DNA of 64,000 nucleotides from Thermoleophilia bacterium (GTDB lineage: Bacteria > Actinomycetota > Thermoleophilia > UBA2241). Under the pieces are notes generated by a model, which made no database searches, was not told where the DNA came from, and worked only from the letters and a program-made list of their open reading frames with translations. The stretch is taken from the NCBI GenBank assembly GCA_017882325.1, contig JADGPQ010000001.1:541-64540 (forward strand), given 5' to 3'. Both the position numbers and the translations under genes were made by a program. Positions within the stretch are counted from its first letter, which is position 1. Each line of letters begins with the position of its first letter. Of the stretch, positions 46,541-63,891 are shown piece after piece.

Positions 46541-46668
46541 CGCGCGCGTGCGCTGAGAAGGGGCCCGCCGGCTGGCGCAGCCGGCGGGCCCCTTTTCTTG
46601 TCCCTCCTGTATGGCAGGAGTAATATAGCCGTCCCGCTTTTTGCGGCCCGTCGCAGGAGGAACACACC

Positions 46669-46950
46669 ATGATCGGTGAAGACGACGTCCGCTACGTCGC
46701 GAAACTCGCCCGCCTGCGTCTCGACCCGGACGAGGTCGCCCGCATGGCCGCCGAGTTGGCCAAGATCCTCGCTCACATCGGCAAAATGAGCGAGCTCGAC
46801 ATGACCGGCGTACCGCCCACCGCCCACGTTCTCGACGTGGTGAACGTGACGCGCCCCGACAAACCGCGGCCGAGCCTCTCGCGCGCGGACGCCCTCCGCA
46901 ACGCGCCGGCCGTGAGTGACGACTGCTTCCGCGTGCCGAGGATGGGCTGA
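46669..46950 (+). CDS. gatC: Asp-tRNA(Asn)/Glu-tRNA(Gln) amidotransferase subunit C
   Basis: VRYVAKLARLRLDPDEVARMAAELAKIL GatC hallmark. Confidence 0.9.
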   Translation: MIGEDDVRYVAKLARLRLDPDEVARMAAELAKILAHIGKMSELDMTGVPPTAHVLDVVNVTRPDKPRPSLSRADALRNAPAVSDDCFRVPRMG

Positions 46951-46952
46951 CG

Positions 46953-48467
46953 GTGCCTGCGCTGGACCCGCTGCGGCTGACCGCCCGTGTCGCCAAGCGC
47001 CTGCTCGTCGACGGCGAGATCTCGTCGGCCGAACTGACCAAGGTCTACCTCGACCAGATCGCCGCTGTTGAGGGTCACGTGCGCGCCTACATCCGCGTGA
47101 CCTACGACAACGCCGCCAAGTACTCGACCAAGGTCGACCGCGAGATGCAGGCCATGCGCGGCCCACTCGCCGGCCTGCCCATCGCCATCAAGGACAACAT
47201 GGTCACGGAAGGCGTCACGACAACCTGTGCCTCCCGGATCCTGCACGACTACATGCCCGTGTACACGGCGACCGCCGTCCGCCAGGTGTGGGACGACCAC
47301 GTCGTGATGCTCGGCAAGACCAACCTCGACGAGTTTGCCATGGGCTCTTCCACAGAGAACTCGTCGTACCAGACGACGCGCAACCCCTGGGACCTGGCCA
47401 CAGTGCCCGGCGGCTCCAGCGGTGGCTCCGCTGCCGCCGTCGCCGCCGGCGAAGCGCTGTGGGCCCTCGGTAGCGACACCGGCGGATCCATCCGCCAGCC
47501 GGCGGCGCTCTGCGGCACCGTCGGCATGAAGCCCACCTATGGCGCCGTGAGCCGCTATGGGCTTGTGGCGTTCGCCAGCTCGCTCGACCAGATCGGGCCT
47601 CTCACTCGCTCGGTGTACGATTGCGCCCTCCTGCTGCAGCACATCGTCGGCTATGACCCCAACGACGCCACCAGCGTCGCGCTCCCCGAGCCCGTCGCGC
47701 TTCCGGACGCGGAGCGGCTTGACGGCCTGCGCGTGGGCATCCCCGCGGAGTACCTTGCTGTCGGCATCGAGCCGGGCGTGCGCGCCCGCTTCGACGAGAC
47801 GATCGCGCGCGTCGAAGAGCTGGGCGGCAACTGCGTCGAGATCAGCCTGCCCCACACGGAGTATGCGCTGCCCGCCTACTACATCATCGCTCCGGCCGAG
47901 GCGAGCGCGAATCTCGCGCGCTTCGATGGCGTCCGCTACGGCTACCGCTGCGCCGACCCGGTCGACCTGCTCGACATGTACGAGCGCACACGCGGCGAGG
48001 GCTTCGGACCCGAGGTCAAACGGCGCATCGTGATCGGCACGTACGCGCTTTCGGCCGGCTACTACGATGCCTACTACGGTCGCGCCCAGAAGGTGCGCAC
48101 GCTCGTGCGCCGCGACTTCGAGCGGGCTTTCGCCGACGTCGACCTCATCGCCTCGCCGACGTCGCCTTCGGTGGCGTTCAAGGCCGGTTCACGCACGGCC
48201 GACCCGCTCTCGATGTATATGTGCGACATCTGCACCATCCCAGTGAACCTCGCGGGCCTGCCCGCCATCAGCATCCCCTGCGGGCTCAGCGACGGGCTCC
48301 CGGTGGGCTTCCAGCTCATCGGACCCGCGTTCAGCGAGAACCGCATCCTGCAGGCCGCACACGCGCTGGAGGGCGCCATCGGCTTCGCACCGGCGCCCAC
48401 CTTCTGCGACTCGGGCGCCGACGCAGCCTGCCTCGGCGCGCACGCCGGGACGGAGGCGCAGGAATGA
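46953..48467 (+). CDS. gatA: Asp-tRNA(Asn)/Glu-tRNA(Gln) amidotransferase subunit A
   Basis: amidase signature (GGSSGGSAAAVAAG) and full-length GatA similarity. Confidence 0.95.
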   Translation: MPALDPLRLTARVAKRLLVDGEISSAELTKVYLDQIAAVEGHVRAYIRVTYDNAAKYSTKVDREMQAMRGPLAGLPIAIKDNMVTEGVTTTCASRILHDYMPVYTATAVRQVWDDHVVMLGKTNLDEFAMGSSTENSSYQTTRNPWDLATVPGGSSGGSAAAVAAGEALWALGSDTGGSIRQPAALCGTVGMKPTYGAVSRYGLVAFASSLDQIGPLTRSVYDCALLLQHIVGYDPNDATSVALPEPVALPDAERLDGLRVGIPAEYLAVGIEPGVRARFDETIARVEELGGNCVEISLPHTEYALPAYYIIAPAEASANLARFDGVRYGYRCADPVDLLDMYERTRGEGFGPEVKRRIVIGTYALSAGYYDAYYGRAQKVRTLVRRDFERAFADVDLIASPTSPSVAFKAGSRTADPLSMYMCDICTIPVNLAGLPAISIPCGLSDGLPVGFQLIGPAFSENRILQAAHALEGAIGFAPAPTFCDSGADAACLGAHAGTEAQE

Positions 48468-49918
48468 GCGCTTGGGAACCGGTCATCGGCCTCGAGATGC
48501 ACGTGGAGCTCGACACGCGCACCAAGATGTTCTGCGCCTGCGAGGTCACCAAGGGCGACGAGCCCAACCTGCACACGTGCCCCAAGTGCCTCGCGCACCC
48601 GGGCGCGCTGCCCGTGGTCAACGAGCGCGCCGTCGAGTACGCCGCGCGCATCGCCCTGGCGCTCAACTGCAGCGTGCAGCCGCGCAACATCTTCCACCGC
48701 AAGAACTACTTCTATCCCGACCTGCCCAAGGCGTATCAGATCAGCCAGTACGATGAGCCGCTCGCCGTCGACGGCTGGTTCGAGTACTGGGTCGACGATG
48801 AGAAGCTCGGCTGTCGCATCAACCGCGTGCACATGGAGGAGGACGCCGCCAAGCTGGTGCACGCGGGCGGAGACGCCGGGCGCATCGCCGGCTCCGATTT
48901 CTCCATGGTCGACTTCAACCGCGGCGGCACGCCGCTCATCGAGATCGTCAGCGAGCCCGACATCCCCTCGCCGGAGGCGGCTCGCGAGTTCCTCCAGCAG
49001 CTCCGCAATCTCGTCATTGAGCTGGGCGTGAGCGAATGCAACATGGAGGAAGGGCAGATCCGCTGGGACGCCAACATCAGCGTGCGGCCCGAAGGGAGCG
49101 CCGAGCTGGGGACCCGTACCGAGCTCAAGAACATGAACAGCTTCCGCTATCTGCAACAGGCGCTCGAAGCCGAGATCCCGCGCCAGGTCGAGATCATCGA
49201 GGCCGGCGGACGGATCGACCTCGAGACCCTGCACTTCGACCCGGACACCGGCAGCACGACGCCGCTGCGCTCGAAAGAGGAGGCTCACGACTACCGCTAC
49301 TTCCCCGAGCCCGACCTGGTGCCGCTGGTCATCGACCCGGATTGGGTCGAGGGTCTGCGCGCGACGCAGCCGGAGCTGCCGGCGGCGCGCGCCGAACGGT
49401 TCATGTCGCAGTACAGCCTCTCGCGCGCGGACGCCCTCGTGCTCGGCAGCTCGCACGCGCTGGCCGCGTTCTACGAGGAGGTCGTGGCGCTGGGGGCCGG
49501 CGCCAAGCCGGTGGCCAACTGGACGATGGGCGAGTACCTCGCCCATCTCAACGCCGCCGGCCTCGAGGCCGGCCACGGCCACGTCACCGCCGAACGCCTC
49601 GCTAAGCTGGTCAAGCTCGTCGAGGACGGCACCGTGTCGACGAGCTCCGGCAAGGACGTCTTCGCCAGGATGATCGCCGAGAGGGCCGAGCCCGAGGAGA
49701 TCGTCGAGAGACACGGCCTCGGCCAGATCAGCGACATGTCGAAGCTCAAGGCCGCCGTCGCTCGGGTGGTCGCCGACAATCCGGCGCAGGTCGAGCAGTA
49801 CCGCGGCGGCAAGCAGCAGGTGCTGGGCTTCTTCGTCGGGCAGATCATGAAGGCCACCGGGGGGCGCGCCAACCCGCAGCTTGTCAACGAGCTGCTGCGC
49901 AAAGCGCTGGACGGCTGA
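48464..49918 (+). CDS. gatB: Asp-tRNA(Asn)/Glu-tRNA(Gln) amidotransferase subunit B
   Basis: WEPVIGLEMHVEL...KMFCAC N-terminus and full-length GatB similarity; ATGA overlap with gatA. Confidence 0.95.
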   Translation: MSAWEPVIGLEMHVELDTRTKMFCACEVTKGDEPNLHTCPKCLAHPGALPVVNERAVEYAARIALALNCSVQPRNIFHRKNYFYPDLPKAYQISQYDEPLAVDGWFEYWVDDEKLGCRINRVHMEEDAAKLVHAGGDAGRIAGSDFSMVDFNRGGTPLIEIVSEPDIPSPEAAREFLQQLRNLVIELGVSECNMEEGQIRWDANISVRPEGSAELGTRTELKNMNSFRYLQQALEAEIPRQVEIIEAGGRIDLETLHFDPDTGSTTPLRSKEEAHDYRYFPEPDLVPLVIDPDWVEGLRATQPELPAARAERFMSQYSLSRADALVLGSSHALAAFYEEVVALGAGAKPVANWTMGEYLAHLNAAGLEAGHGHVTAERLAKLVKLVEDGTVSTSSGKDVFARMIAERAEPEEIVERHGLGQISDMSKLKAAVARVVADNPAQVEQYRGGKQQVLGFFVGQIMKATGGRANPQLVNELLRKALDG

Positions 49919-50089
49919 GCCTTCTTGCCTGCCCTCGCTGGCCTGTGGGACAATGAACGTGTCTTGGAGCCGCGCGCTGCCGCCCAGCATCGCGAGTCGC
50001 CTTTCTCTCACACCGCAGGCTCATCCCACGGTAGCGCCGTCCTCGGGGCCGGGGCGCGTGGCGGTACCCGCGTCGACAGGTAGGTGCGC

Positions 50090-51331
50090 ATGACCAGCGA
50101 CCTCTCGAGTTTCGTCATCGCCAGGGCCCGGCCGGCCGAGCCGGCGGTGCGCATCGACGACACGACGCTGCGCGACGGGGAGCAGACGGCCGGCGTCGTC
50201 TTCTCCAACCACGAGAAGATCCGCATCGCCAAGCTTCTCGACGAGGTCGGCGTCCACCAGATCGAGGTGGGCATCCCCGCCATGGGCGGCGACGAGAAGG
50301 CGACGATCAGGGAGATCGTCGACCTCGGGCTCGACGCCTCCATCCTCGCCTGGAACCGGGCCGTCATCGAGGACGTCAGGCACTCGCTCGACTGCGGAGT
50401 CGACGCCGTGGCCATCTCGATGTCGGCCAGCGACATCCACATCGAGCACAAGCTGGCCAAGTCGCGGCAGTGGGTCCTCGACCAGATTCGCGAGTGCGTG
50501 GCCTTCGCCAAGGATAAGAACCTCTACGTCTCGGTCAACGCCGAGGACGCCTCACGCGCCGATCTCGAGTTTCTGCTGCGCTTCAGCCAGGCCGCCAAGG
50601 AGGAGGGCGCCGACCGCCTGCGTTTCTGCGACACGCTCGGCATCCTCGACCCGTTCGATACCTTCAACGTCATCACGTTCCTCAAGAAACAGGGCGGGCT
50701 CGACATCGAGATGCACACCCACGACGACTTCGGCATGGCGACGGCCAACGCGCTCGCCGGCATCAAGGCCGGAGCCACCTACGTCAACACCACCGTCAAC
50801 GGTCTCGGGGAGCGCGCCGGCAACGCCGCCCTCGAGGAGGTCGTCATGGCGCTCAAGTACCTCGGCAAGGTGGATGTGGGCCTGCACACGAGCCGCTTCC
50901 GCGAGCTCAGCGAATACGTGGCCGCCGCCTCGGCGCGCACCATCCCGGCCTGGAAGAGTATCGTCGGCACCAACGTCTTCGCCCACGAAAGCGGCATCCA
51001 CGCCGACGGGGTCATCAAGAACCCGCTCAACTACGAAGCGTTCGCCCCCGAGGACGTCGGCCTCGAACGCCAGATCGTGGTGGGCAAGCACTCCGGGTCG
51101 CGCACCATCTACCGCAAGTTCCAGGAGTTCGGCCTGGAGCTCACGCAGGCCGACTGCGACGGCGTCCTCGCCCTGGTGCGCAAGACGGCCGTGGAGCTCA
51201 AGCGAGCCCTCTTCGACAAGGAGCTCATGTACATCTATCAGGACTATCTGGCGCGCCTCGGCGACGCCGTGCCCATGGGCAAGCGGGCGGACGGCGCAGC
51301 CGCGGCCGAGACCGCCGGAGCGTCTTCGTGA
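50090..51331 (+). CDS. homocitrate synthase / (R)-citramalate synthase / 2-isopropylmalate synthase family enzyme, short form (no LeuA regulatory domain)
   Basis: HMGL-like TIM barrel (IDDTTLRDGEQ...HTHDDFGMATANALAGIKAGATYV), about 413 aa. Confidence 0.75.
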   Translation: MTSDLSSFVIARARPAEPAVRIDDTTLRDGEQTAGVVFSNHEKIRIAKLLDEVGVHQIEVGIPAMGGDEKATIREIVDLGLDASILAWNRAVIEDVRHSLDCGVDAVAISMSASDIHIEHKLAKSRQWVLDQIRECVAFAKDKNLYVSVNAEDASRADLEFLLRFSQAAKEEGADRLRFCDTLGILDPFDTFNVITFLKKQGGLDIEMHTHDDFGMATANALAGIKAGATYVNTTVNGLGERAGNAALEEVVMALKYLGKVDVGLHTSRFRELSEYVAAASARTIPAWKSIVGTNVFAHESGIHADGVIKNPLNYEAFAPEDVGLERQIVVGKHSGSRTIYRKFQEFGLELTQADCDGVLALVRKTAVELKRALFDKELMYIYQDYLARLGDAVPMGKRADGAAAAETAGASS

Positions 51332-52584
51332 CCGCGCTCACCCTCGCCGAGAAGATCCTCGCGGCGCGCGCCGGCCTCGGCACGGTCGTGCCCGGGCAGA
51401 TCGTCGTGGCCGCCGTCGACGTGGCCATCGCCCAGGACGGCACGGGGCCGCTCGCCATCGAGCAGCTCGAGGCGCTCGGCGCCGCCACCGTCAAGGCGCC
51501 GACCTGCGTGTTCTTCATCGACCACGCCGCCCCGGCGCCGCGCAGCGAGCTGGCCAATGCGCAGAAGACGATCAGGGCGTTCTGCGCGTCCTCCGGCGCC
51601 ACGCTCAGCGACGTCGAGATGGGCGTCTGCCACCAGAGGGTCGCCGAGAGCTACGCACGGCCCGGCGACCTGGTCATCGGCGCCGACTCGCACACCTGCA
51701 TGGCGGGCGCCCTCGGAGCATTTGCGACGGGCATGGGCAGCACCGACGTCGCCGTCGGCATGGCCAGCGGCCAGACCTGGCTGCGCGTGCCCGAGACGTT
51801 TCGTATCGAGGTCGCCGGCGTGCTGCGCGACGGCGTCGAAGCCAAGGATCTGATGCTCACGCTGATCGGCGCCATTGGCGCCGACGGCGCCACGTACAAG
51901 GCGCTCGAGTTCGGCGGGACGGGCATCGACGTTCTGCCAATGCCCGGCCGCTTCACGCTCAGCAACATGGCGGTGGAGGCCGGCGCGAAGGCGGGCCTCA
52001 TGCCCAGCGACGACACGACGCGCGAGTTCCTCATCGGTCAGGGCCGCGAGGAGGTCTGGCGGCCGCTCGCCGCCGACCCCGGCGCCGCCTACGAGAGCGT
52101 CGTCGAGTCCGACGCCCGTGCCATCGTCCCGATGGTGGCCCGTCCGCACACGGTAGACAACACGGCGCCGGTCGCGGAGCTCAAGGGCACCAGGGTCGAC
52201 CAGGTGCTCATCGGCACGTGCACCAACGGGCGGCTTGCCGACCTGCGCTCGGCGGCGCGCCTGCTGCGCGGGCGCCGCCGAGCCTCCCACACGCGTCTCA
52301 TCGTCACGCCGGCCTCTCAGGCCGTGGCGCGAGCCGCGGCTGCGGAGGGCCTGTTCGACGTGTTCTGGGATGCCGGAGCCGTGGTCACCAACCCCGGCTG
52401 CGGCGCCTGCGTCGGCATCCACGAGGGCATCCTCGCCGACGGCGAGGTCTGCCTCAGCACCGCCAATCGCAACTTCCACGGGCGCATGGGCAACCCCGAG
52501 GCGTCCATCTATTTGGCCTCGCCGGCCACCGCGGCCGCCACGGCCGTGGCCGGCGAGATCACCGATCCCCGTGAACTGCTCTAG
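51328..52584 (+). CDS. 3-isopropylmalate dehydratase / homoaconitase large subunit (archaeal-type aconitase family)
   Basis: aconitase family Cys ligands ([26 protein letters not shown]); GTGA overlap upstream; ends TAG. Confidence 0.8.
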
Positions 52585-52597
52585 GAAGGAGGACGCC

Positions 52598-53119
52598 GTG
52601 GCCAAGCAATACGACGCGCCGCCGCCGTTGGTCATCGACCCCGCCAAGCGCTTCACCGCCACCATCAGCACCGACCAGGGCGACATCGTCATCGAGCTCT
52701 ACGCGGACAAGGCGCTCGCGACGGTCAACAACTTCGTGTTCCTGGCTCGCGAGGGCTTTTACGACGGCGTCACGTTTCATCGCGTCATCAAGGGGTTCAT
52801 GGCGCAGGGCGGCGACCCAACCGGCAGTGGCAGCGGCGGCCCCGGCTACCGCTTCGCCGACGAGTTCCACCCGGCGCTCAAGCACGACCAGCCCGGCATC
52901 CTGTCGATGGCCAACGCCGGCCCGAACACGAACGGGTCGCAGTTCTTCATCACGTACCGCGACGCGCCCCATCTCGACGGCAAACACGCCGTGTTCGGGC
53001 GCGTCATCGAAGGCATGGACGTCCTCGAGGCCATCCCCGAGCGAGACCCTACGCGCGCGCGTGAGCCCGGCCTCGCGATGAACAGCATCACGGTCCATGA
53101 GGAGGAATGGATCACGTGA
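52598..53119 (+). CDS. cyclophilin-type peptidyl-prolyl cis-trans isomerase
   Basis: [31 protein letters not shown] cyclophilin motifs; GGAAGGAGG RBS before GTG. Confidence 0.85.
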
Positions 53120-53631
53120 GCGAGGAGCTGCTACGCGGCAAGGCTTGGCTTTTCGGCGACGACATCTCCACCGACCACATCGCCCCGGGCCGCCTGTTCC
53201 ACCTACGCACCGACCTCCCCGAGCTGGCCAAGCACGTCCTCGAGGACGCACGTCCGGAGTTTGCCGCGTCTCTGGCGCCCGGCGACTTCGTCGTGGGCAG
53301 GCGCAACTTCGGCCTCGGATCCAGCCGGGAGCACGCGCCGCGTATCATCAAGCTCGCCGGCGCGGGTGCGGTGATTGCTCAGAGCTTCGCTCGTATCTTC
53401 TTCCGCAACGCCATCAACGTCGGCTTGCCCGTGCTGCAGTGCGACACGAGCGGCATCGGCGAGCAGGACGACCTCGAGGTCGTCTTGATCGCCGGCGAGG
53501 TGCGCGATCTCACGAGCGGAGCCGTCATCCCGTTCGTGCCCCTGCCGCCGGTGATGGTGACGATCTTGAACGACGGCGGCCTGGTGGCGCACGTCAAGAA
53601 GCACGGCGGCTTTGCATTGCCTCAGGGCTGA
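53107..53631 (+). CDS. 3-isopropylmalate dehydratase / homoaconitase small subunit (short archaeal type)
   Basis: aconitase swivel domain ([11 protein letters not shown]...[12 protein letters not shown]). Confidence 0.8.
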
Positions 53632-53684
53632 CCGGCCCCGCGAGGCGCCATCAGCCCGTTGAGATCCGAGACCACAGGAGCTAC

Positions 53685-54689
53685 ATGACCTTTACAGTCA
53701 CCCTGATCCCGGGCGACGGCACCGGCCCCGAGCTCGCCGCCGCCCTCGAGACCGTGATCGCCGCGACCGGCGTACCGATCCTGTGGGAAGTGCACGACGC
53801 CGGCGTGGATGTGATGAAGGAGTATGGCACGCCGCTGCCCGAGCACGTCCTCGACTCCATCCGTCGCACCAGAGTGGCGATCAAGGGACCCATCACGACA
53901 CCGGTCGGCCACGGATTTCGGAGTGTGAACGTGGCCCTGCGCAAAGAGCTCGATCTCTACGCCTGCCTGCGCCCCTCCAAGTCGATGAAGGGCGTGCGCA
54001 GCCGCTTTGAGGATATCGACCTCGTCGTCGTCCGCGAGAACACGGAAGACCTCTACGCAGGCATCGAGCACATGGTCGGCGAGGACGCGGCGGAGAGCAT
54101 CAAGATCATCACCCGCAAAGGCAGCGAACGTATCGTGCGGTTTGCCTTCGAGTACGCGCGCCGGCGCGGCCGCCGCAAGGTCACCGCCGTGCACAAGGCC
54201 AACATCATGAAGTGCACCGACGGGCTCTTTCTGCGCGTCGCCGGCGAAGTGGCCGCGCGGTACCCGGACATCGAGTTCGAGGATCGCATCGTCGACAACA
54301 TGTGCATGCAGCTCGTCCAGAAGCCGGAGCTCTACGACGTGCTGGTGCTGCCCAATCTGTACGGCGACATCGTCAGCGACCTGTGCGCCGGTCTCATCGG
54401 CGGCCTCGGCGTGGCGCCGGGCGCCAACTTCGGCGACGACATCGCCGTGTTCGAGCCCGTGCACGGCAGCGCCCCCAAGTACGCCGGCCGGGACAAGGTC
54501 AACCCCATGGCGCTGCTGCGCTCGGGCGTTCTGCTGCTCGAGCATCTCGGCGAGGACGCCGCGGCGCGCCGCATGGAGGACGCCATCGCGGCCGTCGTCG
54601 CCGAGGGCAAGGACGTGACCTACGACCTGGGCGGCACGGCCGGCACCAGCAGCATGGCCGCCGCCATCGCACGCCGCATCCAAAGTTAG
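53685..54689 (+). CDS. homoisocitrate/isocitrate/3-isopropylmalate dehydrogenase family (Thermus HICDH-like NAD enzyme)
   Basis: [52 protein letters not shown]; ends TAG. Confidence 0.8.
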
Positions 54690-55068: not shown

Positions 55069-55246
55069 ACTGACCAGCGCAGCCGGGTCAACGTAAGGTG
55101 CGCCGACAGGCCAACCGAACACAAGCGCGGCGACGCCGACGCGGCCGACGCGCCTGCCGGAATGGCCAAGCGAAGCCCCTTTTCGGCTCCGTTTTGCCCT
55201 GCAAGATGGCGGTTTCTCCGCTGTTGCTCCGCCTCCGGCCGTTGGC

Positions 55247-55252
55247 TAGAAT
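55247..55252 (+). promoter_or_regulatory. -10-like hexamer TAGAAT upstream of aor (same GCTAGAATGG context as upstream of argS at 15169-15174)
   Basis: sequence motif only; implies about 90-nt 5' UTR before TTG 55344. Confidence 0.3.
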
Positions 55253-55343
55253 GGCGAAGCCGGTAAGCCCACCGTTTCCCGCCCCGATGGCTAGTTCGCG
55301 ACGCCCGCGGAGCGGGGAAGGAGTACGTCGTCAGGAGGACGCA

Positions 55344-57122
55344 TTGGATTTCTACCAAGGCAAAGTGCTCAAGATCGACCTGAGCGCGGGCACTGCCATC
55401 GTCGAGCCGCTCAACATGGAGTGGGCGGAGTTGTACATCGGCGGCAAGGGCCTCATGCTGCGCTACCTGTGGGAGCTCACCGAGCCTGGCCTCGACCCAT
55501 GGTCACCTGACAACCCCTTCATCGTGGCCACCGGCCCCTTCGCCGGCACAAACGTCAGCACGTGTTCGCGCGTCGTCATCGGCGGCAAGAGCCCGGCCTC
55601 GGGCACCATGCTCGACAGCTACATGGGCGGCTCGTTTGGTTCCATCCTCAAGTTCGCCGGCTACGACATGGTCATCGTCCAGGGCCTGGCGCCGCAGCTC
55701 AGCACCATCCTCATCAAGGACGACGTCGTCACCCTCGCCCCCTGCCCCGCGTACACGGGCATGAAGACGTCCGAGATCGAAGCGGCTCTGCGCGCCGACT
55801 TCGACGCGAAGATGACCGCCATCAGCATCGGCCCGGCCGGCGAGAGCAAGCTGCCGTGGGCCTGCATCTCCAACGACCAGTATCACAAGGCCGGGCGAGG
55901 CGGCACGGGCGCGCTGCTGGGCTCCAAGAACGTGAAGGCCATCGCCGTTGCCGGCACCGGCAAGGTCACCGTCGGCGACGCCAAGGCGTTCCTCGACGAC
56001 ATCGAGCGCATGGACGCCGACTACATCCTCACGGACGACAACTACTGGGTTCACGAAGAAGGCACGCCCATCCTCGTCGGCATCACCAGTGGCGCGGGGT
56101 GCCAGCCGGTGCGCAACTTCTCGGAGGGTACCAATCCGGACGTCGAGAACATCGACTCCGAGGCCTTCCAGAAGATCCGCGTCAAGAAGCGCGCCTGTTA
56201 CCAGTGCACGCTCGCCTGTCGCAACTTCCACCGCGTCGAGGGCGCCGAAGGCGAAGGCCCGGAGTACGAGACCATCGCGCTCTGCGGCGCCAACGTCGGC
56301 GTCGGTGACATCGACGCGCTGATGAAGTTCAACATCGAATGCGACGAATGGGGCCTCGACACGATCTCCACCGGCAACGTTCTCGGCCTCGCGATGGACA
56401 TGACCGAGAAGGGCATCCACGACTTTGGCGTGCGCTTCGGCGATCTCGATGCCTACCTCAAGGTGCCCGAGCAGCTCGCGACTCGCAGCGGTATCGGCGC
56501 CGAGCTGGCGATGGGTGCCAAGGCCCTTGCCGAGAAGCACGGGTGCCCCGAGCTCGCCATGCATTCCAAGAACCTCGAGATGCCCGGCTACGACCCGCGC
56601 GGCTCGTTCGGGATGAGCATCGCTTACGCGAGCTCGGATCGCGGCGGCTGCCACATGCGCTCGTTCCCCATCGGCGTCGAGGTCGTCGAGGGCAGCATGC
56701 CGGCCGATACGCTGGACTCGAGCAAGGTCGTGTGGAACATCGACTTCCAGAATCACTACGCCTTCAAGTTCTGCGGCATCTGGTGCGACTTCTGGGCCAT
56801 CGACTACGACCAGATGACGCAGCTCATGAAGCACCTCTGGAAACGCGACGTGACCGAGGACGAGCTCAAGGTCGTCGGCGAGCGGGTCTGGAACCTGGGG
56901 CGCCTGTACAATCTGCGCGAAGGCACCGAGAAGAAAGACGATTTCGTGCCCAAGGCGATGCTCGAAAAGCCCTTCACCACCGGCGTCTCCGCCGGCAAGG
57001 TCATCGGCAGCGAGCGCTTCGCCAAGGTAATGGACGAGTACTACGCGACGCGTGGCTGGGACGAGAACGCAGTGCCCACCGAAGACAAGCTCCGGCAACT
57101 CGGCATCGACGTGCGGCTCTGA
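55344..57122 (+). CDS. aor: tungsten-containing aldehyde:ferredoxin oxidoreductase (AOR family)
   Basis: N-terminal FYQGKVLKIDLSAGT...IGGKGL AOR domain 1, C-terminal AOR domains with Cys ligands (CYQCTLACRNFH); AGGAGGA RBS 4 nt before TTG 55344. Confidence 0.85.
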   Translation: MDFYQGKVLKIDLSAGTAIVEPLNMEWAELYIGGKGLMLRYLWELTEPGLDPWSPDNPFIVATGPFAGTNVSTCSRVVIGGKSPASGTMLDSYMGGSFGSILKFAGYDMVIVQGLAPQLSTILIKDDVVTLAPCPAYTGMKTSEIEAALRADFDAKMTAISIGPAGESKLPWACISNDQYHKAGRGGTGALLGSKNVKAIAVAGTGKVTVGDAKAFLDDIERMDADYILTDDNYWVHEEGTPILVGITSGAGCQPVRNFSEGTNPDVENIDSEAFQKIRVKKRACYQCTLACRNFHRVEGAEGEGPEYETIALCGANVGVGDIDALMKFNIECDEWGLDTISTGNVLGLAMDMTEKGIHDFGVRFGDLDAYLKVPEQLATRSGIGAELAMGAKALAEKHGCPELAMHSKNLEMPGYDPRGSFGMSIAYASSDRGGCHMRSFPIGVEVVEGSMPADTLDSSKVVWNIDFQNHYAFKFCGIWCDFWAIDYDQMTQLMKHLWKRDVTEDELKVVGERVWNLGRLYNLREGTEKKDDFVPKAMLEKPFTTGVSAGKVIGSERFAKVMDEYYATRGWDENAVPTEDKLRQLGIDVRL

Positions 57123-57152
57123 CAGCCGGCTCGCGGAAGGAAGGGATCGCAG

Positions 57153-57650
57153 ATGCCCCACGTCATGATCAGCAACAAGAAGTGCACCGGCTGCCACATG
57201 TGCGAGCTGGGCTGCTCGGCATTTCACGAGGGCGGGTTTCAACCCTCGCTGGCTCGGCTCTTCACGGATGTCAACCCCACGACGGCCGTGATCAAGGGTC
57301 ATTCGTGCCTGCAGACCGCCTGCGCCAAGTGCCAGGAGGCCTGTCCGGAGGACGCCATTGTGACCAGGCAGATCACCGTGAAGCCGGCGGGCGAGTTCAG
57401 CAGCAGGGAGAAGAACGGCGATACGGTCACCGGCTTCGTCCTGATCGTGGACGAGTCCAAGTGCACGAACTGCGGCGATTGCTACGAGGTCTGCCCGTAC
57501 GACGTCATCCATGAGCACCCCGCCCGCGAAGTCGCGTTCAAGTGCGATCTGTGCGATGGCGACCCGCAGTGCATCGCCTTCTGCCAGAACAAGTACGTCC
57601 TCGCCGTCGATCTCAAGCTCGACAAGAAAGATAAGGAACTGCGGGCCTGA
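57153..57650 (+). CDS. 4Fe-4S ferredoxin-domain electron-transfer subunit (AorA-like)
   Basis: four CxxCxxCxxxCP-type clusters (CTGCHMC, CAKCQEACP, CTNCGDCYEVCP, CDLCDGDPQC). Confidence 0.8.
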   Translation: MPHVMISNKKCTGCHMCELGCSAFHEGGFQPSLARLFTDVNPTTAVIKGHSCLQTACAKCQEACPEDAIVTRQITVKPAGEFSSREKNGDTVTGFVLIVDESKCTNCGDCYEVCPYDVIHEHPAREVAFKCDLCDGDPQCIAFCQNKYVLAVDLKLDKKDKELRA

Positions 57651-57652
57651 CG

Positions 57653-57922
57653 ATGGCCACGGCTTACGTCAAGCTCCCGGTCGGCATGACCACCGCGGCC
57701 GGTGAACGCGCGGTCCAGTGCCAAGCCGCTACTGTGGCCGAAGCGCTCGAGCAGGCCGTCGCCGTCGAACCGCGGCTCAAGCCGCGCATCTTTCGCGATG
57801 ACGGGCGCATGTGGGCCGGCGTGTTCCTCAATGCCCGCAACATCAACGCGCTCCAGGGTCTCGAGACGCCGCTCAGCGACGGCGACAAGCTCGCCGTGGT
57901 GCCGCCCATCTCGGGTGGCTGA
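57653..57922 (+). CDS. MoaD/ThiS family sulfur-carrier protein (AorD-like)
   Basis: 89 aa, beta-grasp, C-terminal GG. Confidence 0.75.
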   Translation: MATAYVKLPVGMTTAAGERAVQCQAATVAEALEQAVAVEPRLKPRIFRDDGRMWAGVFLNARNINALQGLETPLSDGDKLAVVPPISGG

Positions 57923-57958
57923 AGCGAGTTTCCGACGCCGGCGCAGATGACCGACCAC

Positions 57959-57986
57959 GGGGCGGGCGCCGTACGGCGCCCGCCCC
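57959..57986 (+). terminator. perfect 12-bp hairpin GGGGCGGGCGCC-GTAC-GGCGCCCGCCCC after aor operon
   Basis: seen directly; no U tract (typical for high-GC). Confidence 0.5.
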
Positions 57987-58017
57987 GTCGCTGTCGCGTT
58001 CTGGTACCATCTCGCGC

Positions 58018-58680
58018 ATGAACATCGACGCCGCCAGACGACAGCTTGCCGAAGCGGGGCTCCAGAGCGCCGTCGGCGGCCGCGCCAGCGTTCGCCGTTT
58101 CCTCCCCGACCCCGTCCCACGGGAGGACGTGACGACGATGGTCGAACTGGCGGTGCGTGCGGCCAACGCCGGCAACGCCCAGATGTGGAGGTTCGTTGCC
58201 GTGGACGACGCGGTCACGCAGGTCGCGATGCGTCAGGCCGTCGACGACGCCATCGACGAGATGGCCGCCTGGCCGCAACTCGCCGGCAGCAGCAAAGAGA
58301 TCAAGGCCCTACGGGCCTACGCGACGTTCTTTGTGGACGCGCCGCTGGTGATGGCCGTGTTCGGCCTGCCCTACCTCTCTCGCGCCGACGAGATGCTGCT
58401 CGCCCGCGGTCTCAGCACGGAGGAGCGCGACAGGCTGCGCGCGCGCCCGGACCTGCAGAGCATCGGCGCCGCCGTCCAGCTCTTCTGTTCGGCGGCGCAC
58501 GCCTTGGGCTACGGCTCGTGCTGGATGACGGCCCCCGTACTCGCGGCGCCCGGCATCGAAGGGCTGCTTGGCGTGGAGCCTCCGGCCAGGCTGGTCGCCG
58601 TCGTGCCCGTCGGGCGGCCCGCGGGAGCCGTCAATCCCACGTCACGGCGACCGGTCGGCGAGGTGCTCGAGTTCCGCTGA
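58018..58680 (+). CDS. nitroreductase family protein
   Basis: RSVRRFLPDPVPREDV N-terminus and GYGSCWM motif of NADH oxidase/nitroreductase fold. Confidence 0.7.
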   Translation: MNIDAARRQLAEAGLQSAVGGRASVRRFLPDPVPREDVTTMVELAVRAANAGNAQMWRFVAVDDAVTQVAMRQAVDDAIDEMAAWPQLAGSSKEIKALRAYATFFVDAPLVMAVFGLPYLSRADEMLLARGLSTEERDRLRARPDLQSIGAAVQLFCSAAHALGYGSCWMTAPVLAAPGIEGLLGVEPPARLVAVVPVGRPAGAVNPTSRRPVGEVLEFR

Positions 58681-58689: not shown

Positions 58690-59787
58690 GTGAAGGGGAG
58701 GAACTCCTTGATCCACGCAGCAAATGACGTCCGCGACCTCTGTCGCCGCGCGCTCGCCGGTGGCCTGCTCGAAGAGGCCGACCTCGTGACGCTCCTCTCT
58801 GCCCGCGGCGATGCCGCCGAGGTCCTGTTCGCCGCGGCGCGCGAGGTTCGCGCCCGGCGTTTCGGCGCCGTGGTCTTTCTCTACGGTTTCGTGTACTTCT
58901 CGACCTACTGCCGCAACGAGTGCGCCTTCTGCTTCTACCGCGTCGACAACGACGAGAGCCCGCGCTATCGCAAGTCCCTGGACGAGGTCGTCTCCATCTG
59001 CCGCGACCTCGCGGGCTCCGGGGTCGTCCTGCTCGACCTCACCATGGGCGAAGACCCGGTCATCCACGACGACCCCGGCTACGCCGGACTTCTCGAGCTC
59101 GTCGCGGCCGTGTGCGACGGTGGCGGGCTACCGGTCATGGTCTCGCCGGGCGTTGTGCCCGACGAGGTGCTCGCAGGTCTCCGTGCCTGCGGCGCGGACT
59201 GGTACGCGTTGTACCAGGAGACGCACAGTCCGGAGCTGTACGAGCGCCTGCGGACCGGGCAGTCGTTCGCGGCGCGGATCGCCGCGCGCCGCGCGGCTCG
59301 GCGCGCCGGTCTGCTCGTCGAGGACGGCATCCTCACGGGTATCGGCGACACGGAGGCAGACCGCGCCCGTTCCATCGCGGCGATGCGCGAGGCCGCCTGG
59401 GAGCAGGTCCGGGTCATGACGTTCGTGCCGCAGGTGGGCACGCCGCTGGCCGATGTGCGGCCGGCCGCAGACGAGGCCGAGCTGCTCGCCATCGCGGCGA
59501 TGCGTCTGGCCATGCCCCGTTCTCTGATCCCGGCGTCTCTCGACGTCGACGGCATCCGCGGTCTCGAGCGGCGCCTGAACGCGGGCGCCAACGTGGTGAC
59601 CTCCATCGTGCCACCGATCGTCGGCCTGGCCGGCGTGTCGCAGGCCGAGCTCGACATCGACGAGGGGCGCCGGACGGTGGCGGAAGTGCTGCCGCACCTC
59701 GCACGGCTGGGGCTCCGCTCGGGGACGGTCACCGAGTATCGCGCCTGGCTCGCTGCGGCGCACGAGGGCGTCGAGGTCCCGGCGTGA
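58690..59787 (+). CDS. pylB: radical SAM enzyme PylB-like (3-methylornithine synthase, lysine mutase)
   Basis: near-collinear match to Methanosarcina PylB: FVYFSTYCRNECAFCFY, LDLTMGEDP, ALYQETHSPELYERLRTGQSF, VEDGILTGIGDT, VRVMTFVPQVGTPL, LIPASLDVDGIRGLERRLNAGANVVTSIVPP; start GTG 58690 or TTG 58708 (GGGGAGG RBS). Confidence 0.85.
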   Translation: MKGRNSLIHAANDVRDLCRRALAGGLLEEADLVTLLSARGDAAEVLFAAAREVRARRFGAVVFLYGFVYFSTYCRNECAFCFYRVDNDESPRYRKSLDEVVSICRDLAGSGVVLLDLTMGEDPVIHDDPGYAGLLELVAAVCDGGGLPVMVSPGVVPDEVLAGLRACGADWYALYQETHSPELYERLRTGQSFAARIAARRAARRAGLLVEDGILTGIGDTEADRARSIAAMREAAWEQVRVMTFVPQVGTPLADVRPAADEAELLAIAAMRLAMPRSLIPASLDVDGIRGLERRLNAGANVVTSIVPPIVGLAGVSQAELDIDEGRRTVAEVLPHLARLGLRSGTVTEYRAWLAAAHEGVEVPA

Positions 59788-61028
59788 GACTCCTGGTCGT
59801 CGGCGGCAAGCTGCAGGGTACCGAGGCCGTCTACCTGGCGGCGAAGGCCGGCTGGGAGACCGTTCTCGTCGACCGCCGGGAGGCTGCTCCGGCAGCGGGG
59901 CTCGCCGACCGACACGTGGTAGCGGACATCGTCGCCCACGACTCCCTCGCGAAGACATTGGTCAGCGCCTGCGACGCCGTGTTGCCGGCCTGCGAAGACC
60001 TGGGGACGCTGGAGTGGCTCGCTGAACGCGTGCCAGCCTGGGGCGTCCCCCTTCTCTTCGACCTCGACGCATACCGCGTCAGCGAGTCCAAGCTGGCCTC
60101 GCTGAGGCTGTTCGAGGCACTCGATGTGTCGCGGCCCGTCCCGTGGCCGGCCTGCGGCTTTCCGGCGGTCGTGAAGCCCGACTCGGCGAGCGGCAGTGAG
60201 GGCGTGTCAGTGGTCGAGGACGAAGCCGAGCTCTCGGCCGCGCTCGCGTGCCTCGCGGCCGGAGGGCACCGGCCGGTGGTCGAGGAATACGTCGCCGGGC
60301 CGTCCCTATCGCTCGAGGTGCTGGCCTGGGACGGCAACGCCGTCCCGCTGCAGATCACCGGCTTGGAGTTCGACGCCCTCTACGACTGCAAGCGCGTCGT
60401 GGCGCCGGTCGGCGAGGCCGAGGCCGGAGGGCCTTCGGCCGCCGGCCCCGCCGGCCCGGGCGCGTGGGCTCACGCCGTCGCGCCTGGCACGCTTGCGGGC
60501 TTCGCCGACGCGGCCGCGCGTCTCGCGGCCGGCCTGGGCCTGAACGGGCTGATGGACGTGGAGGTGATGGTGCGCGGTCTCGAGCCCAAGGTGCTCGAGA
60601 TCGACGCTCGCCTCCCGAGCCAGACGCCGACCGCGGTGTACTGGTCCAGCGGGCTCAACATCGTCGAGCTGCTACTCGAGACGGTTCGCTGCGGCGCCCT
60701 CCCACTGGTCGACCGCAGGTCGCGCCGCGCTTGTGTCTACCAGCACGTCCATGCTCACGATGGTTTGCTGGAGGTCGCCGGCGAGCATGTGATGGGGAGC
60801 GCAGCACCTCTGCAGCTGGTGGAAGGCTTCTTCGGCGTGGACGAAGCACTCACCGACTATCGTCCCGGAGCGCGCGCTTGGGCGGCCACGTTGATCGCCA
60901 CGGGCGCGGACGTCGAAGGGGCCCAGGCGGTGGCCGACGAGGCCACGAGGGAGCTGTCGCGCTGCGAGAGGCTCGACCTGATCCTCGAGTCTGAGAGACT
61001 GGCGCGTACAGAGGCGACGAGGCCGTGA
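59784..61028 (+). CDS. pylC: ATP-grasp ligase PylC-like (3-methylornithine--L-lysine ligase)
   Basis: LVVGGKLQGTEAVYLAAKAG, FDLDAYRVSESK, SLEV, and LKVLEIDARLPSQTPTAVYWSSGLNIVELL match PylC; GTGA overlap with pylB. Confidence 0.85.
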   Translation: MRLLVVGGKLQGTEAVYLAAKAGWETVLVDRREAAPAAGLADRHVVADIVAHDSLAKTLVSACDAVLPACEDLGTLEWLAERVPAWGVPLLFDLDAYRVSESKLASLRLFEALDVSRPVPWPACGFPAVVKPDSASGSEGVSVVEDEAELSAALACLAAGGHRPVVEEYVAGPSLSLEVLAWDGNAVPLQITGLEFDALYDCKRVVAPVGEAEAGGPSAAGPAGPGAWAHAVAPGTLAGFADAAARLAAGLGLNGLMDVEVMVRGLEPKVLEIDARLPSQTPTAVYWSSGLNIVELLLETVRCGALPLVDRRSRRACVYQHVHAHDGLLEVAGEHVMGSAAPLQLVEGFFGVDEALTDYRPGARAWAATLIATGADVEGAQAVADEATRELSRCERLDLILESERLARTEATRP

Positions 61029-61831
61029 CAAGACTCACCGCAGAAGAAGTGACAACGCTCACCGACCGGTTGGGCGAGTTCGAGGCCGGGCTCAGGGAGA
61101 TCACCGGCCTCGGGCTGCGCGAGCTCGCCATGAGGACGGTCGCGCATCCGCCGGTCTGCGTGCCCCTCTACGGCGCGCGCGTGGCGGCGGTGCCGGTTAC
61201 CAGTGGAGAGGGCGTCATCCGTGGTTTCAGCGACTGCGTGGGGGCGATCCTCCGCCATCTCGGCTGCGACGCCTGGGTGACGGCGCAGCCCGACCTACGC
61301 GGCGTACAGGAGGCGTACGACGGGGCGGCGGAGGTGGTCTTCCTCGCCGATGACTTTCGTTTCGTCGCCCTGAACACTGGTGAGCGTCGCTGCGTGGACA
61401 ACGACCCGGCCACGGCCGACGGCTACGCGACCGCGCTCGAGGCGGCGGCCGGCAGCCTCCTCAGCCGGCACGTCCTTCTTCTCGGGCTCGGTCCAGTCGG
61501 CCGCGGGGCCGCGCGGCGTCTGGTGAGCCGCGGCGCCGCGGTCGAGGTCGTGGAGCCCGACCGGGCGCGACTTCGCGCCGCGCTCGACGTCGGGCTCAAG
61601 CTGCAGCCGGTGACGCTTGCCGACGGTCTCGAGCGCTGCGACCTCATCTTCGACGCCACTCCTTCCGGAGGCTTCATCGATGCCGGCGACGTGACCCCCT
61701 TCACCGTCGCGGCCGTCCCGGGCCTTCCGTCCGCCTTCACTCCGGCTGCCCAGGCCGCGCTCGGCGCGCGTCATATCCACGAGCCGCTGGCCGTCGGCGT
61801 CGCCGTCATGGTGGCACGGGCCCTCGTCTGA
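61025..61831 (+). CDS. pylD: PylD-like dehydrogenase (3-methylornithyl-N6-lysine dehydrogenase, pyrrolysine synthase)
   Basis: AAVPVTSGEGVI, VVFLADDFRFVALN, LLLGLGPVG, IFDATPSGG, AAVPGLPSAF, IHEPLAVGVAVM match PylD; GTGA overlap with pylC. Confidence 0.85.
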   Translation: MTRLTAEEVTTLTDRLGEFEAGLREITGLGLRELAMRTVAHPPVCVPLYGARVAAVPVTSGEGVIRGFSDCVGAILRHLGCDAWVTAQPDLRGVQEAYDGAAEVVFLADDFRFVALNTGERRCVDNDPATADGYATALEAAAGSLLSRHVLLLGLGPVGRGAARRLVSRGAAVEVVEPDRARLRAALDVGLKLQPVTLADGLERCDLIFDATPSGGFIDAGDVTPFTVAAVPGLPSAFTPAAQAALGARHIHEPLAVGVAVMVARALV

Positions 61832-61873
61832 GAGGTCCCACGTCTCTGCCGCGCGGCTGCCGGCGCGCCGTTG

Positions 61874-61879
61874 TAGAAT
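61874..61879 (+). promoter_or_regulatory. -10-like TAGAAT (TTGTAGAATC) 10 nt upstream of tRNA-Pyl 5' end
   Basis: same 10-mer TTGTAGAATC occurs at 17507-17516 upstream of M42 peptidase gene. Confidence 0.35.
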
Positions 61880-61889
61880 CATGGCGTGC

Positions 61890-61962
61890 GGGGGGTCGAT
61901 CGGAAGGATCAGCGTGGGCTCTAAACCCACGTAGGCGGGTGTGACTCCCGCACTCCCCGCCA
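61890..61962 (+). tRNA. pylT: tRNA-Pyl (amber suppressor, anticodon CUA), CCA encoded
   Basis: manual fold: acceptor GGGGGGT/ACTCCCC (one G-U), single nt before D arm, D stem GATC/GATC with 5-nt loop, 6-bp anticodon stem CGTGGG/CCCACG, loop CTCTAAA, 3-nt variable loop TAG, T arm GCGGG-TGTGACT-CCCGC, discriminator G; all atypical features match known tRNA-Pyl. Confidence 0.85.
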
Positions 61963-62037
61963 CTCACGTCTCCGGCGCGGACGGGCGTGGCGCGGCGAGC
62001 GGCCGGAGCTGTGCACGGGCGCCACGCGGGAGGGGAC

Positions 62038-62489
62038 ATGGTCGAGGACCGCAAGGAGCGCGTCGACCGCGAGCTCATCGAGCTGCTCAACGAGATCCGC
62101 GTCGTCCTGCCTGGGGCCCAGGTGCTGTTCGCCTTCCTGCTCAGCCTCCCGTTCCTGGCCCGTTTCGATCTGCTCACGCGGATCGATCGTGATGCTTACT
62201 ACGCCGCCTTCCTCTGCACAGCGGTGGGACGATCATATCGATGGCGCCTTCCGCGAATCATCGGCTGCGCTTTCGCGAATCCGACAAGGAACCGATGCTC
62301 CTCTGGTTCAACAGGCTGGTCCTGGTCGGCTCGGCATTCCTGGCCGCGGCGATCGCATTGGCCGTCTTCGTGGTGACGGACATGCTCTTCGACCAAAGCG
62401 CGGCGGCACTCCTGGCGGCGCTCATCGCCGCCTGGGTCGTGATCGTGTGGTACTTGGCGCCGCTCTGGCAGCGGCACTCCGCGGAGTAG
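62038..62489 (+). pseudogene. actinobacterial conserved membrane protein (DUF6328-like) disrupted by a 1-nt frameshift
   Basis: two ORFs (61987-62376 and 62241-62489) together reconstruct one family-like protein (ELLNEIRVVLPGAQVLFAFLLSLPF ... APSANHRLRFRESDKE ... VFVVTDMLF); frames switch near 62224-62232 within a GGTGGG run. Confidence 0.5.
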
Positions 62490-62529: not shown

Positions 62530-63447
62530 TCAGTCCGACGAGAACGTTACGGGGATGCGGACTTCGTTCTGGCGTGAGCCGTCCTCCATCGACTGGCTGT
62601 AGACGATGAGCGCACCGCTCTGTGCCGTCGTGCTGAACGAGACCGTCGTGCGGAAGCGTCCGCGCCCGGGCGCGCCGGCGAACGCCTGCACCTGCCTGCG
62701 GACGAGGCTGTGGCCGGCGGCGTCGACGAGCCGTGCCGCGAAACTGCCCTCGAAGACGCTGGCCGTCCCGTTGAGCGCGAAGGGGCTGGACAGCACTGCG
62801 CCGACGCCGGGGGTCTCGACGAAGATGGCGGGCTCGAAGGCGCGCCAGTCGGCGCGCGACTGCTTGGCGAGGATCAGACCGAGGTCGCTGCCCGGCGCGA
62901 TCTCGACGAGGCCTCCGGCAAGCGTGATGTCCACGGCCCTGATCGTGGGGAACCGGGTGAGCGTGTAGACGACCTGCGCGACGCGCTCCTGCCACGAGAG
63001 GTCGCTGCCGCCCGCGACGAAGCGCCCAGGGAGGTCGACCCGCGCAGTCGTGCCGTCGATAGAGAGGCCGAGGAGGCGGACCCCGGTCGGCACGGCGCTC
63101 GTCAGGCCGGCGGCCTGCTCGGCTGCCGTGGGGCCGGTGAGCAGGGCCTTCAGCGCCGCCGTCGCCGGCATCGTGGTCTGCGGGACGCGACGCTGCGCTG
63201 AGCCGAGCTTGCCGCCGCGCAGGAAGTACAGGGAAATCGTGGTCGCAGGCTGCGGGGTGGCCGTGGGCGCCGTCGTGGGACTTGGAGATGCCGAGGGTGT
63301 CGGCGTCACGGTCACGGTGGCCGTGGGGGCGGGCGATGAGCCGCCGGAGGAGTCGCCACAGGCGGCCAGCCCGGCGGCCGCCAGCGCGCTCGCAACGGCC
63401 AGCACCAGCGTCGTCCGCGCGAATCTGGATGTGGCACGTCGTCTCAT
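62530..63447 (-). CDS. lipoprotein with GerMN / Gmad2-like domains
   Basis: signal peptide plus lipobox LAAC, low-complexity Pro/Thr/Ser linker, GerMN-like C-terminal region. Confidence 0.6.
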   Translation of the reverse strand: MRRRATSRFARTTLVLAVASALAAAGLAACGDSSGGSSPAPTATVTVTPTPSASPSPTTAPTATPQPATTISLYFLRGGKLGSAQRRVPQTTMPATAALKALLTGPTAAEQAAGLTSAVPTGVRLLGLSIDGTTARVDLPGRFVAGGSDLSWQERVAQVVYTLTRFPTIRAVDITLAGGLVEIAPGSDLGLILAKQSRADWRAFEPAIFVETPGVGAVLSSPFALNGTASVFEGSFAARLVDAAGHSLVRRQVQAFAGAPGRGRFRTTVSFSTTAQSGALIVYSQSMEDGSRQNEVRIPVTFSSD

Positions 63448-63564: not shown

Positions 63565-63891
63565 ATGCCCACCGACCCCAACAAGGCGCGGTACTACCGC
63601 AAACAGGTCCCGCTCTTCCGCCTCGTCGACAAGCTCAAGCTGTGGCCGTCGCGGCGCGGCATCCTCCACGGCATCAAGGAGTTCGACGAGCGCGGCTCCT
63701 ACGCCGTGGTGATCACCCACTGCAACAAGCGCATGGTGGTGCACGACTCCAAGAAGAGCCGCGCCGCACGCTGGCTGCGCAACAAGTGGTACGCGGAAGC
63801 CTGCCCGAAGTGCCGCATTCCCGAGTGGAAACTGCAGAAGTACGCGGCGACGCACTTCAAGCGCGGCTACGGCTCGCATTTGCACGACTGA
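63565..63891 (+). CDS. pylSn: PylSn (N-terminal tRNA-Pyl-binding domain of split pyrrolysyl-tRNA synthetase)
   Basis: LWPSRRGILHGIKEF...HCNKRMVVHDSKKSRAARWLRNKWYAEACPKCRIPE matches PylRS N-domain (LWMSRTGTIHKIKHH...SRTARALRHHKYRKTCKRCRV), Zn-binding Cys/His conserved; 108 aa. Confidence 0.8.
   Translation: MPTDPNKARYYRKQVPLFRLVDKLKLWPSRRGILHGIKEFDERGSYAVVITHCNKRMVVHDSKKSRAARWLRNKWYAEACPKCRIPEWKLQKYAATHFKRGYGSHLHD

Follow-up and report, generated by a model that had tools for sequence, protein, structure and literature searches.

The locus described here raises the question of whether a short element in the genome of an uncultured member of the Thermoleophilia (Actinomycetota) is a genuine gene for the pyrrolysine tRNA (pylT), and whether it belongs to a system capable of reading UAG as pyrrolysine. 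Known tRNA-Pyl molecules are recognised by the length of their anticodon stem (6 bp) and variable loop (3 nt) and by the absence of both T-psi-C and G18G19, and they also keep U54.A58 and a purine at position 57 (PMC1851642, PMC7609411, PMC11764691). Genes for PylRS were reported by Guo et al. in 2022 from 81 bacterial genomes, including "two Actinobacteria" (PMC9630628). Our own search of the literature returned no paper tying pyrrolysine to Thermoleophilia in substance. In public databases, NCBI annotation already calls Thermoleophilia proteins "pyrrolysine--tRNA(Pyl) ligase large subunit", while the JGI label for many homologues is "pyrrolysyl-tRNA synthetase-like protein". We examined the element within the whole 64-kb stretch of DNA that contains it (64,000 nucleotides, hereafter the window) and alongside related loci from other genomes, which are referred to by L numbers.

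Sequence and architecture of the tRNA gene

The element occupies positions 61890-61962 of the forward strand (73 nt), with the anticodon CTA at 61921-61923, a discriminator G and an encoded CCA. Divided by structural element it reads GGGGGGT-C-GATC-GGAAG-GATC-AG-CGTGGG-CTCTAAA-CCCACG-TAG-GCGGG-TGTGACT-CCCGC-ACTCCCC-G-CCA. A preliminary description, made from these letters alone, had assigned to it the unusual architecture of tRNA-Pyl, and every feature that it named was recovered in our analysis. The CUA anticodon lies in the 7-nt loop CUCUAAA, which carries U33 and A37 and is unchanged in every homologue. A single nucleotide, C8, separates the acceptor stem from the D stem in the sequence, in the fold and in the covariance model. 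The D stem consists of the four pairs GATC/GATC enclosing the 5-nt loop GGAAG; in an alignment of pylT sequences this GAUC/GAUC stem showed no variation across bacteria and Methanosarcina, and the statement that Methanosarcina pylT also has the GATC/GATC stem is backed by a published primer sequence. The anticodon stem, CGUGGG/CCCACG, has 6 bp, five of which show compensatory double changes across lineages. The variable loop has 3 nt, being U/C-A-G in the canonical register, and CCA is genome-encoded both here and in all homologues. As for the two remaining loops, T-psi-C is missing from the T loop UGUGACU, in which U54, G57 and A58 are retained, and the D loop GGAAG includes the dinucleotide GG, which may or may not correspond to the G18G19 that tRNA-Pyl normally lacks.

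The identity elements established for tRNA-Pyl in Desulfitobacterium hafniense are G73, G1:C72, G10:C25 and A11:U24 (Herring 2007, PMC1851642; PMC7609411), to which studies of M. barkeri add G51:C63, U33 and A37, G73 and G1:C72 being universal (PMC1851642, PMC7609411). All of these are carried by the pylT of the window, together with U54/A58 and a purine at position 57. G8, a moderate identity element in D. hafniense (PMC1851642), is absent, position 8 being C. This position is likewise C in the other Thermoleophilia and in the Clostridia locus L019, U in Dehalococcoidales, L017 and Methanosarcina, and G in L020; G8 is no universal feature of the tRNA-Pyl family.

The length of 73 nt, as opposed to 72 nt, is due to the junction that links the D stem to the anticodon stem, which has two nucleotides (A22 and G23) where the canonical number is one. 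G23 is able to pair with U43 or C43, giving an optional seventh anticodon-stem pair for which only one-sided variation was seen, and the minimum free energy (MFE) fold indeed draws a 7-bp anticodon stem and a 2-nt variable region. In the 72-nt forms of pylT the lone junction nucleotide (position 26) is usually able to pair likewise. The idea that the extra nucleotide is exclusive to Thermoleophilia was rejected: the pylT of L017, from a Deltaproteobacteria MAG, has the same A-G junction and 73 nt, and that of L020, from another Deltaproteobacteria MAG, has 74 nt with a bigger D loop. Bacterial pylT thus varies naturally to an extent that includes the 73-nt form, which is not lineage-specific.

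Detection by independent models and covariation

A search with ARAGORN, one of the checks that had been proposed, returned a tRNA-Pyl (cta) at exactly 61890-61962. The only other tRNA that this program found in the window was an ordinary tRNA-Gly(CCC) at 19510-19585 (+), which scores 71 bits on the general tRNA model of Rfam, RF00005. Both the MFE and the centroid folds of 61890-61962 are cloverleaves, at -36.7 kcal/mol. The z-score of this folding against dinucleotide shuffles is just -2.5 and the DNA of the window is 68% GC, so that folding energy alone is weak evidence.

It had been anticipated that a general tRNA model might miss a tRNA-Pyl, and this was the case: RF00005 gave no match on pylT, either at the gathering threshold or at E<=10, in a search of positions 61700-62150 (451 nt), where Rfam as a whole returned chance sub-threshold matches only at E<=10. 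This miss fits the atypical architecture of tRNA-Pyl and is a limitation of the model, not evidence against a tRNA. By the same token, annotation pipelines that use RF00005 alone will miss pylT.

An independent covariance model was then built exclusively from six pylT sequences from outside the Thermoleophilia, taken from Deltaproteobacteria, Dehalococcoidales, Clostridia and Methanosarcina. Comparison with such a model had been named beforehand as the refuting test. The model matched 61890-61962 with 90 bits and an E-value of 1.5e-21 over model positions 1-72 of 72, and the runner-up in the 64 kb was the tRNA-Gly, at 24.9 bits. Applied to the other Thermoleophilia loci, the same model found one copy in each.

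The 16 pylT copies from Thermoleophilia and Dehalococcoidales were aligned and found to be 96% identical per column, as compared with 38-87% identity for PylD. All 137 cloverleaf pair cells of this alignment are standard pairs (137/137), and double-sided changes occur in six pairs, two of them in L016 (G6:C64 to C:G and G29:C37 to A:U) and four in the Dehalococcoidales copy. None of 500 shuffles reached the covariation of the alignment, and shifting the partners by 1-3 columns abolished the signal. A cross-phylum alignment was obtained by adding two Deltaproteobacteria sequences, the Clostridia sequence of L019 and a Methanosarcina sequence to these 16 copies. The start of the Methanosarcina sequence occurs verbatim in eight papers, and all but six of its internal nucleotides match published primers or a probe. 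In this alignment, 99.5% of cells are paired and compensatory double changes are found in 10 of 22 pairs, a result equalled by none of 500 shuffles. The covariation supporting a tRNA-Pyl thereby spans five lineages.

The Clostridia pylT just mentioned (L019 5952-6023 (+)) has 72 nt and a U.U mismatch in its anticodon stem, and lies between RACo and pylB. It was missed by ARAGORN and recovered by motif and fold.

The same tRNA, nearly invariant, is present in 20 related loci, 18 from Thermoleophilia or other Actinomycetota and two from Dehalococcoidales. Near-invariance combined with compensatory changes in the stems across these 20 loci points to purifying selection, and we have little doubt that 61890-61962 is a genuine pylT gene under selection.

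The pyl cluster and related loci

With reading frames chosen by third-position GC, three genes for pyrrolysine biosynthesis were identified directly upstream of pylT, all on the forward strand: pylB at 58690-59787, coding for a methylornithine synthase of the radical SAM family (TIGR03910, 442 bits, cut-off 348; PF04055), pylC at 59784-61028, coding for an ATP-grasp 3-methylornithine--L-lysine ligase (TIGR03909, 337 bits, cut-off 248; PylC-like_N), and pylD at 61025-61831, coding for a 3-methylornithyl-N6-L-lysine dehydrogenase (TIGR03911, 190 bits, cut-off 150; PylD_N). The stop codon of pylD is separated from the start of the tRNA by 58 nt. Downstream, at a distance of 1.6 kb, lies pylSn (63565-63891, +), which codes for the small tRNA-binding subunit (108 aa) of a split pyrrolysyl-tRNA synthetase (TIGR03912, 125.8 bits, cut-off 51); its product matches the structure of the N-terminal domain of M. 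mazei PylRS, 5UD5, with an E-value of 1e-11. All four proteins thus score above their NCBIfam equivalog cut-offs. Searches by tblastn and BLASTP with M. mazei PylRS had missed this PylSn because of composition-based statistics, and it was then recovered by HMM searches.

Two genes are found between pylT and pylSn. A homologue of DUF6328 (62038-62474, +) is apparently split over two frames, with a break near 62226-62229, and has intact orthologues of 151-152 aa in L021 and L025; the split reflects a frameshift, which would make the gene a pseudogene, or else an error in the sequence. It is followed on the opposite strand by a Germane/Gmad2 gene (62530-63447, -), identified by a domain match. 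Directly 5' of pylB, a block at 55098-58680 (+) codes for an AFOR, a 4Fe-4S ferredoxin, a ThiS-like protein and a nitroreductase, the ThiS-like ORF (57635-57922, +) being assigned by synteny only. The same block was observed in every long Thermoleophilia locus (L001, L005, L007, L009, L021 and L023-L025), and in the Deltaproteobacteria MAG of L017 genes for AFOR and ThiS flank pylT-pylSn (7444-9650).

Further upstream, the stretch 50084-54689 (+) codes for a homocitrate synthase (TIGR02660, 533 bits), a homoaconitase-type large subunit and a protein of the isocitrate/homoisocitrate dehydrogenase type, and is partly conserved in L021. It may be a candidate 2-oxoadipate/lysine branch feeding lysine to pyrrolysine synthesis. 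Other translation-related genes of the window have no evident tie to the pyl cluster, namely an arginyl-tRNA synthetase-like ORF at 15226-16974 (+), recognised by eye from its translation, and the genes for GatA and GatB at 46624-49918 (+), identified by Pfam, with a small ORF just 5' that is taken to be gatC on account of its position.

A search with the PylD of the window as query, restricted to one genome per species, yielded 16 loci, 14 of them from MAGs of Thermoleophilia or other Actinomycetota (PylD 62-87% identical) and two from Dehalococcoidales (38-39% identical). Look-ups of PylSn and PylSc added the Thermoleophilia-type loci L021-L025 as well as loci from Deltaproteobacteria, Aminicenantes and Clostridia. 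ARAGORN detected a tRNA-Pyl 3' of pylD in every Thermoleophilia or Dehalococcoidales locus of sufficient length, and 20 loci show strict linkage of pylT to pylBCD and pylSn. In L025, the genes for AFOR, ferredoxin, ThiS and nitroreductase are followed by pylB, pylC, pylD and pylT, and then by DUF6328, Germane (-), pylSn, a radical SAM gene (-), a B12 corrinoid protein gene (+) and pylSc (-). Loci L005, L023 and L024 share this order except for the gene right after pylT, and the window follows the order of L025 up to its end.

It is at this end that the gene for the catalytic partner of PylSn would be expected. No pylSc was found in the 64-kb window by tblastn without composition correction. 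In L005, L023, L024, L025 and others, pylSc is a separate gene of 286 aa, and the PylSc of L005 scores 311 bits on TIGR02367. In most syntenic relatives pylSc lies about 2 kb past pylSn, a place that in the window would correspond to about 66 kb, beyond the edge at 64000. By analogy with these relatives, pylSc is likely to be present in the genome from which the window comes. Its closest long relative, L021, has no pylSc within 10 kb of pylSn, which indicates that the location of pylSc is not fixed in the lineage; in that locus (10328-20327) genes for an amino-acid permease, a transaldolase and a transketolase occupy the syntenic place. In L001 (15090-15930, -), the tblastn match to PylSc falls into two pieces in different frames, which represent either a frameshifted gene or an indel in a long-read assembly.

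A radical-SAM gene and a gene for a B12-binding corrinoid protein were observed side by side in L005 (12357-14278), L021 (11072-12949), L023, L024 and L025. This pair is conserved between pylSn and pylSc in Thermoleophilia.

UAG usage and possible targets of decoding

None of the reading frames of the window contained an in-frame TAG that was both preceded and followed by a coding signature. Candidates of this kind from L001, L006, L008, L010 and L016 proved to be adjacent genes sharing a frame and were rejected as Pyl genes. In the loci from Clostridia and Deltaproteobacteria, genes for the dimethylamine methyltransferase MtbB adjoin the pyl cluster, the one in L019 being called as two pieces across an in-frame TAG. 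When MttB and MtbB of other loci served as tblastn queries, neither the window nor any Thermoleophilia locus yielded a homologue. Methyl-transfer metabolism is hinted at solely by the B12-binding corrinoid protein that is conserved beside pylSc and scores 159.5 bits on the pyl-associated model TIGR02370, under its cut-off of 215.3.

TAG terminates 10 of the 55 predicted coding segments of the window, some of which are antisense shadows. UAG must therefore still be a normal stop, and its suppression must be limited or regulated, as has been proposed for other Pyl-using bacteria.

The Thermoleophilia pyl cluster is always located between the AFOR-ferredoxin-ThiS-nitroreductase block and the pair of radical-SAM and B12-corrinoid genes. 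Given this constant setting and the lack of mttB, mtbB or mtmB among its neighbours, pyrrolysine might enter a still-unrecognised protein family. We would allow a small chance that this is so, with pyrrolysine used in such a family and not in the classical methylamine methyltransferases and that, as a separate matter, the 73-nt tRNA, through its additional junction nucleotide and potential 7-bp anticodon stem, forms a new recognition or orthogonality class of PylRS/tRNA-Pyl.

The absence of target genes nearby is one of three observations that would fit a relic, in which the tRNA and pylBCD persist while the translation system is non-functional, for instance through loss of pylSc, leaving the tRNA uncharged or in another role. 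The others are that pylSc is missing both from the window and from its syntenic place in L021, and that the PylSc match of L001 is split over two frames. We consider a relic very improbable. The near-invariance of the tRNA and its compensatory stem changes across 20 loci indicate purifying selection, pylB, pylC, pylD and pylSn are intact and above their equivalog cut-offs, and an intact pylSc lies about 2 kb past pylSn in L025, L023, L024, L005 and others that share the gene order. The split in L001, for its part, may be an error of long-read assembly.

A putative promoter upstream of pylT

The preliminary description had pointed to a -10-like box, TAGAAT, at a distance of 10 nt from the tRNA and suggested that pylT has a promoter of its own. 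This box lies at 61874-61879 (+) and is accompanied by no recognisable -35 hexamer, which is why a generic sigma-70 promoter scan around pylT found no promoter. We compared the 80 nt upstream of pylT in 14 Thermoleophilia loci. The sole conserved island in this otherwise unalignable flank was G-TA-[GCT]-[AG]-AT (TAGAAT, TACAAT or TATGAT), which was present in 14/14 loci, always ended at a distance of 10 nt from the initial G of the tRNA and was followed by a conserved GC. The same box was found in four more loci, L021 and L023-L025, and it accompanies the tRNA in L001, L002 and L004, in which pylD and the tRNA are 0.85-1.1 kb apart. Elements of the TANNNT type are typical -10 elements of Actinobacteria, and the conserved box fits this pattern. 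Conservation at a fixed distance, together with the joint movement of box and tRNA, lends support to the suggestion of a separate promoter, from which the transcript would begin just a few nucleotides ahead of the mature 5' end.

These observations also bear on whether the element could instead be part of the pylBCD mRNA, forming in its 3' UTR a tRNA-like structure that serves stability or regulation in cis, and not a free tRNA. Its position just 58 nt past the pylD stop on the same strand would be compatible with such a structure, as would the result of a scan for intrinsic terminators around pylT, which detected none on either side. A UTR structure is nevertheless highly improbable: the box is kept at its fixed 10 nt even in the loci where the tRNA is far from pylD, the full acceptor stem, the discriminator G and CCA are conserved, and the homologous tRNA of L017 is itself far from pylD. 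Finally, it is hardly credible that the element is a generic amber suppressor which receives a standard amino acid from a housekeeping synthetase and is near the pyl genes by coincidence. G73 and G1:C72 do occur also in other tRNAs such as tRNA-Asp and tRNA-Ser (PMC1851642), but the single nucleotide at position 8, the 5-nt D loop, the 6-bp anticodon stem, the 3-nt variable region and the lack of T-psi-C are unlike the general tRNA model, RF00005 gives no match, the pylT model separates the element (90 bits) from tRNA-Gly (24.9 bits), and the linkage to pylBCD and pylSn in 20 loci is strict.

Proposed function and significance

ARAGORN, the independent covariance model, covariation and the context of pylBCD and pylSn all agree on the identity as tRNA-Pyl that had been put forward from the letters alone. 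We conclude with high confidence that the element is a pylT encoding tRNA-Pyl(CUA) and belongs to the bacterial split-synthetase pyrrolysine cluster of an uncultured member of the Thermoleophilia (Actinomycetota).

Based on conservation and synteny, the following route can be proposed. A -10-type promoter of its own, located about 10 nt upstream, would drive transcription of pylT, yielding a precursor that is almost leaderless and already contains the encoded CCA. The products of the genes directly upstream, PylB, PylC and PylD, would make pyrrolysine from two lysines, which is the established pathway to this amino acid. PylSn would bind the compact face of tRNA-Pyl formed by the T loop and the variable loop, and PylSc, expected about 2 kb beyond the edge of the window, would charge it. 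Recognition would proceed via G73, G1:C72 and the D-stem pairs G10:C25 and A11:U24, all of which are present in pylT. The charged tRNA would then read in-frame UAG as pyrrolysine with the normal elongation machinery.

The pylT of the window is a further example of a known Pyl system and reveals no new mechanism; our understanding of how pyrrolysine decoding works is unchanged by it. Its peculiarities are minor and consist of the gene order, the 73-nt junction variant and the absence of an adjacent methylamine methyltransferase gene. Its significance lies in showing that widespread uncultured Actinomycetota of soil and sediment (Thermoleophilia) possess machinery for pyrrolysine, the 22nd amino acid. 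In public data, closely related PylSc clusters number in the hundreds, and there are 1,411 PylSn clusters, which span several phyla. For annotation, UAG in Thermoleophilia genomes of this kind is not safely read as a stop only. For genetic-code expansion, the 73-nt junction variant offers an extra natural class-S tRNA-Pyl for orthogonality screens.

Comparison with known systems

Among characterised systems, that of Desulfitobacterium hafniense (class S) is of the same type as the window, with a bacterial tRNA-Pyl served by separate pylSn and pylSc genes. The gene order on the Thermoleophilia side is pylB-C-D-T ... Sn ... Sc (the latter on the opposite strand), whereas that of D. hafniense we take to be pylT-Sc-B-C-D-Sn. 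At the level of the tRNA, comparison with the description of the D. hafniense molecule in PMC1851642 showed that both share the G:C pairs at G1-G4 and G6, the G5.U68 wobble, the GAUC/GAUC D stem, the 5-nt D loop, the 6-bp anticodon stem, the 3-nt variable loop, a T loop of the form U54-G55-x-R57-A58-C59-U60 and G73. By the same description, the tRNA of the window differs in having C8 and not G8, U and not A at position 56, and one extra junction nucleotide.

The pylT of L017 (Deltaproteobacteria MAG JAFDGJ01) resembles that of the window in its 73 nt and A-G junction and differs from it in having U8 for C8 and several compensated stem differences. In that locus pylT lies directly 5' of pylSn with genes for AFOR and ThiS adjoining, and a gene for MtbB also adjoins, which the Thermoleophilia lack. 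A likeness in shape only was found with the mammalian mitochondrial tRNA-Ser(UCN), which has no sequence homology to pylT and does not belong to the family, has a different anticodon and identity, and keeps G18G19 and T-psi-C.

The Methanosarcina mazei/barkeri system (class N) has a fused PylSn-PylSc enzyme, and the CCA and promoter context of its pylT are archaeal. Its tRNA has 72 nt, as against 73 in the window, with the T loop UUAGAUU in place of UGUGACU and with different acceptor and anticodon stems, the changes being compensatory. It nonetheless has the same cloverleaf register as the pylT of the window, the same GAUC/GAUC D stem and CUCUAAA anticodon loop, and both molecules have G73 followed by CCA, G51:C63, U33 and A37.
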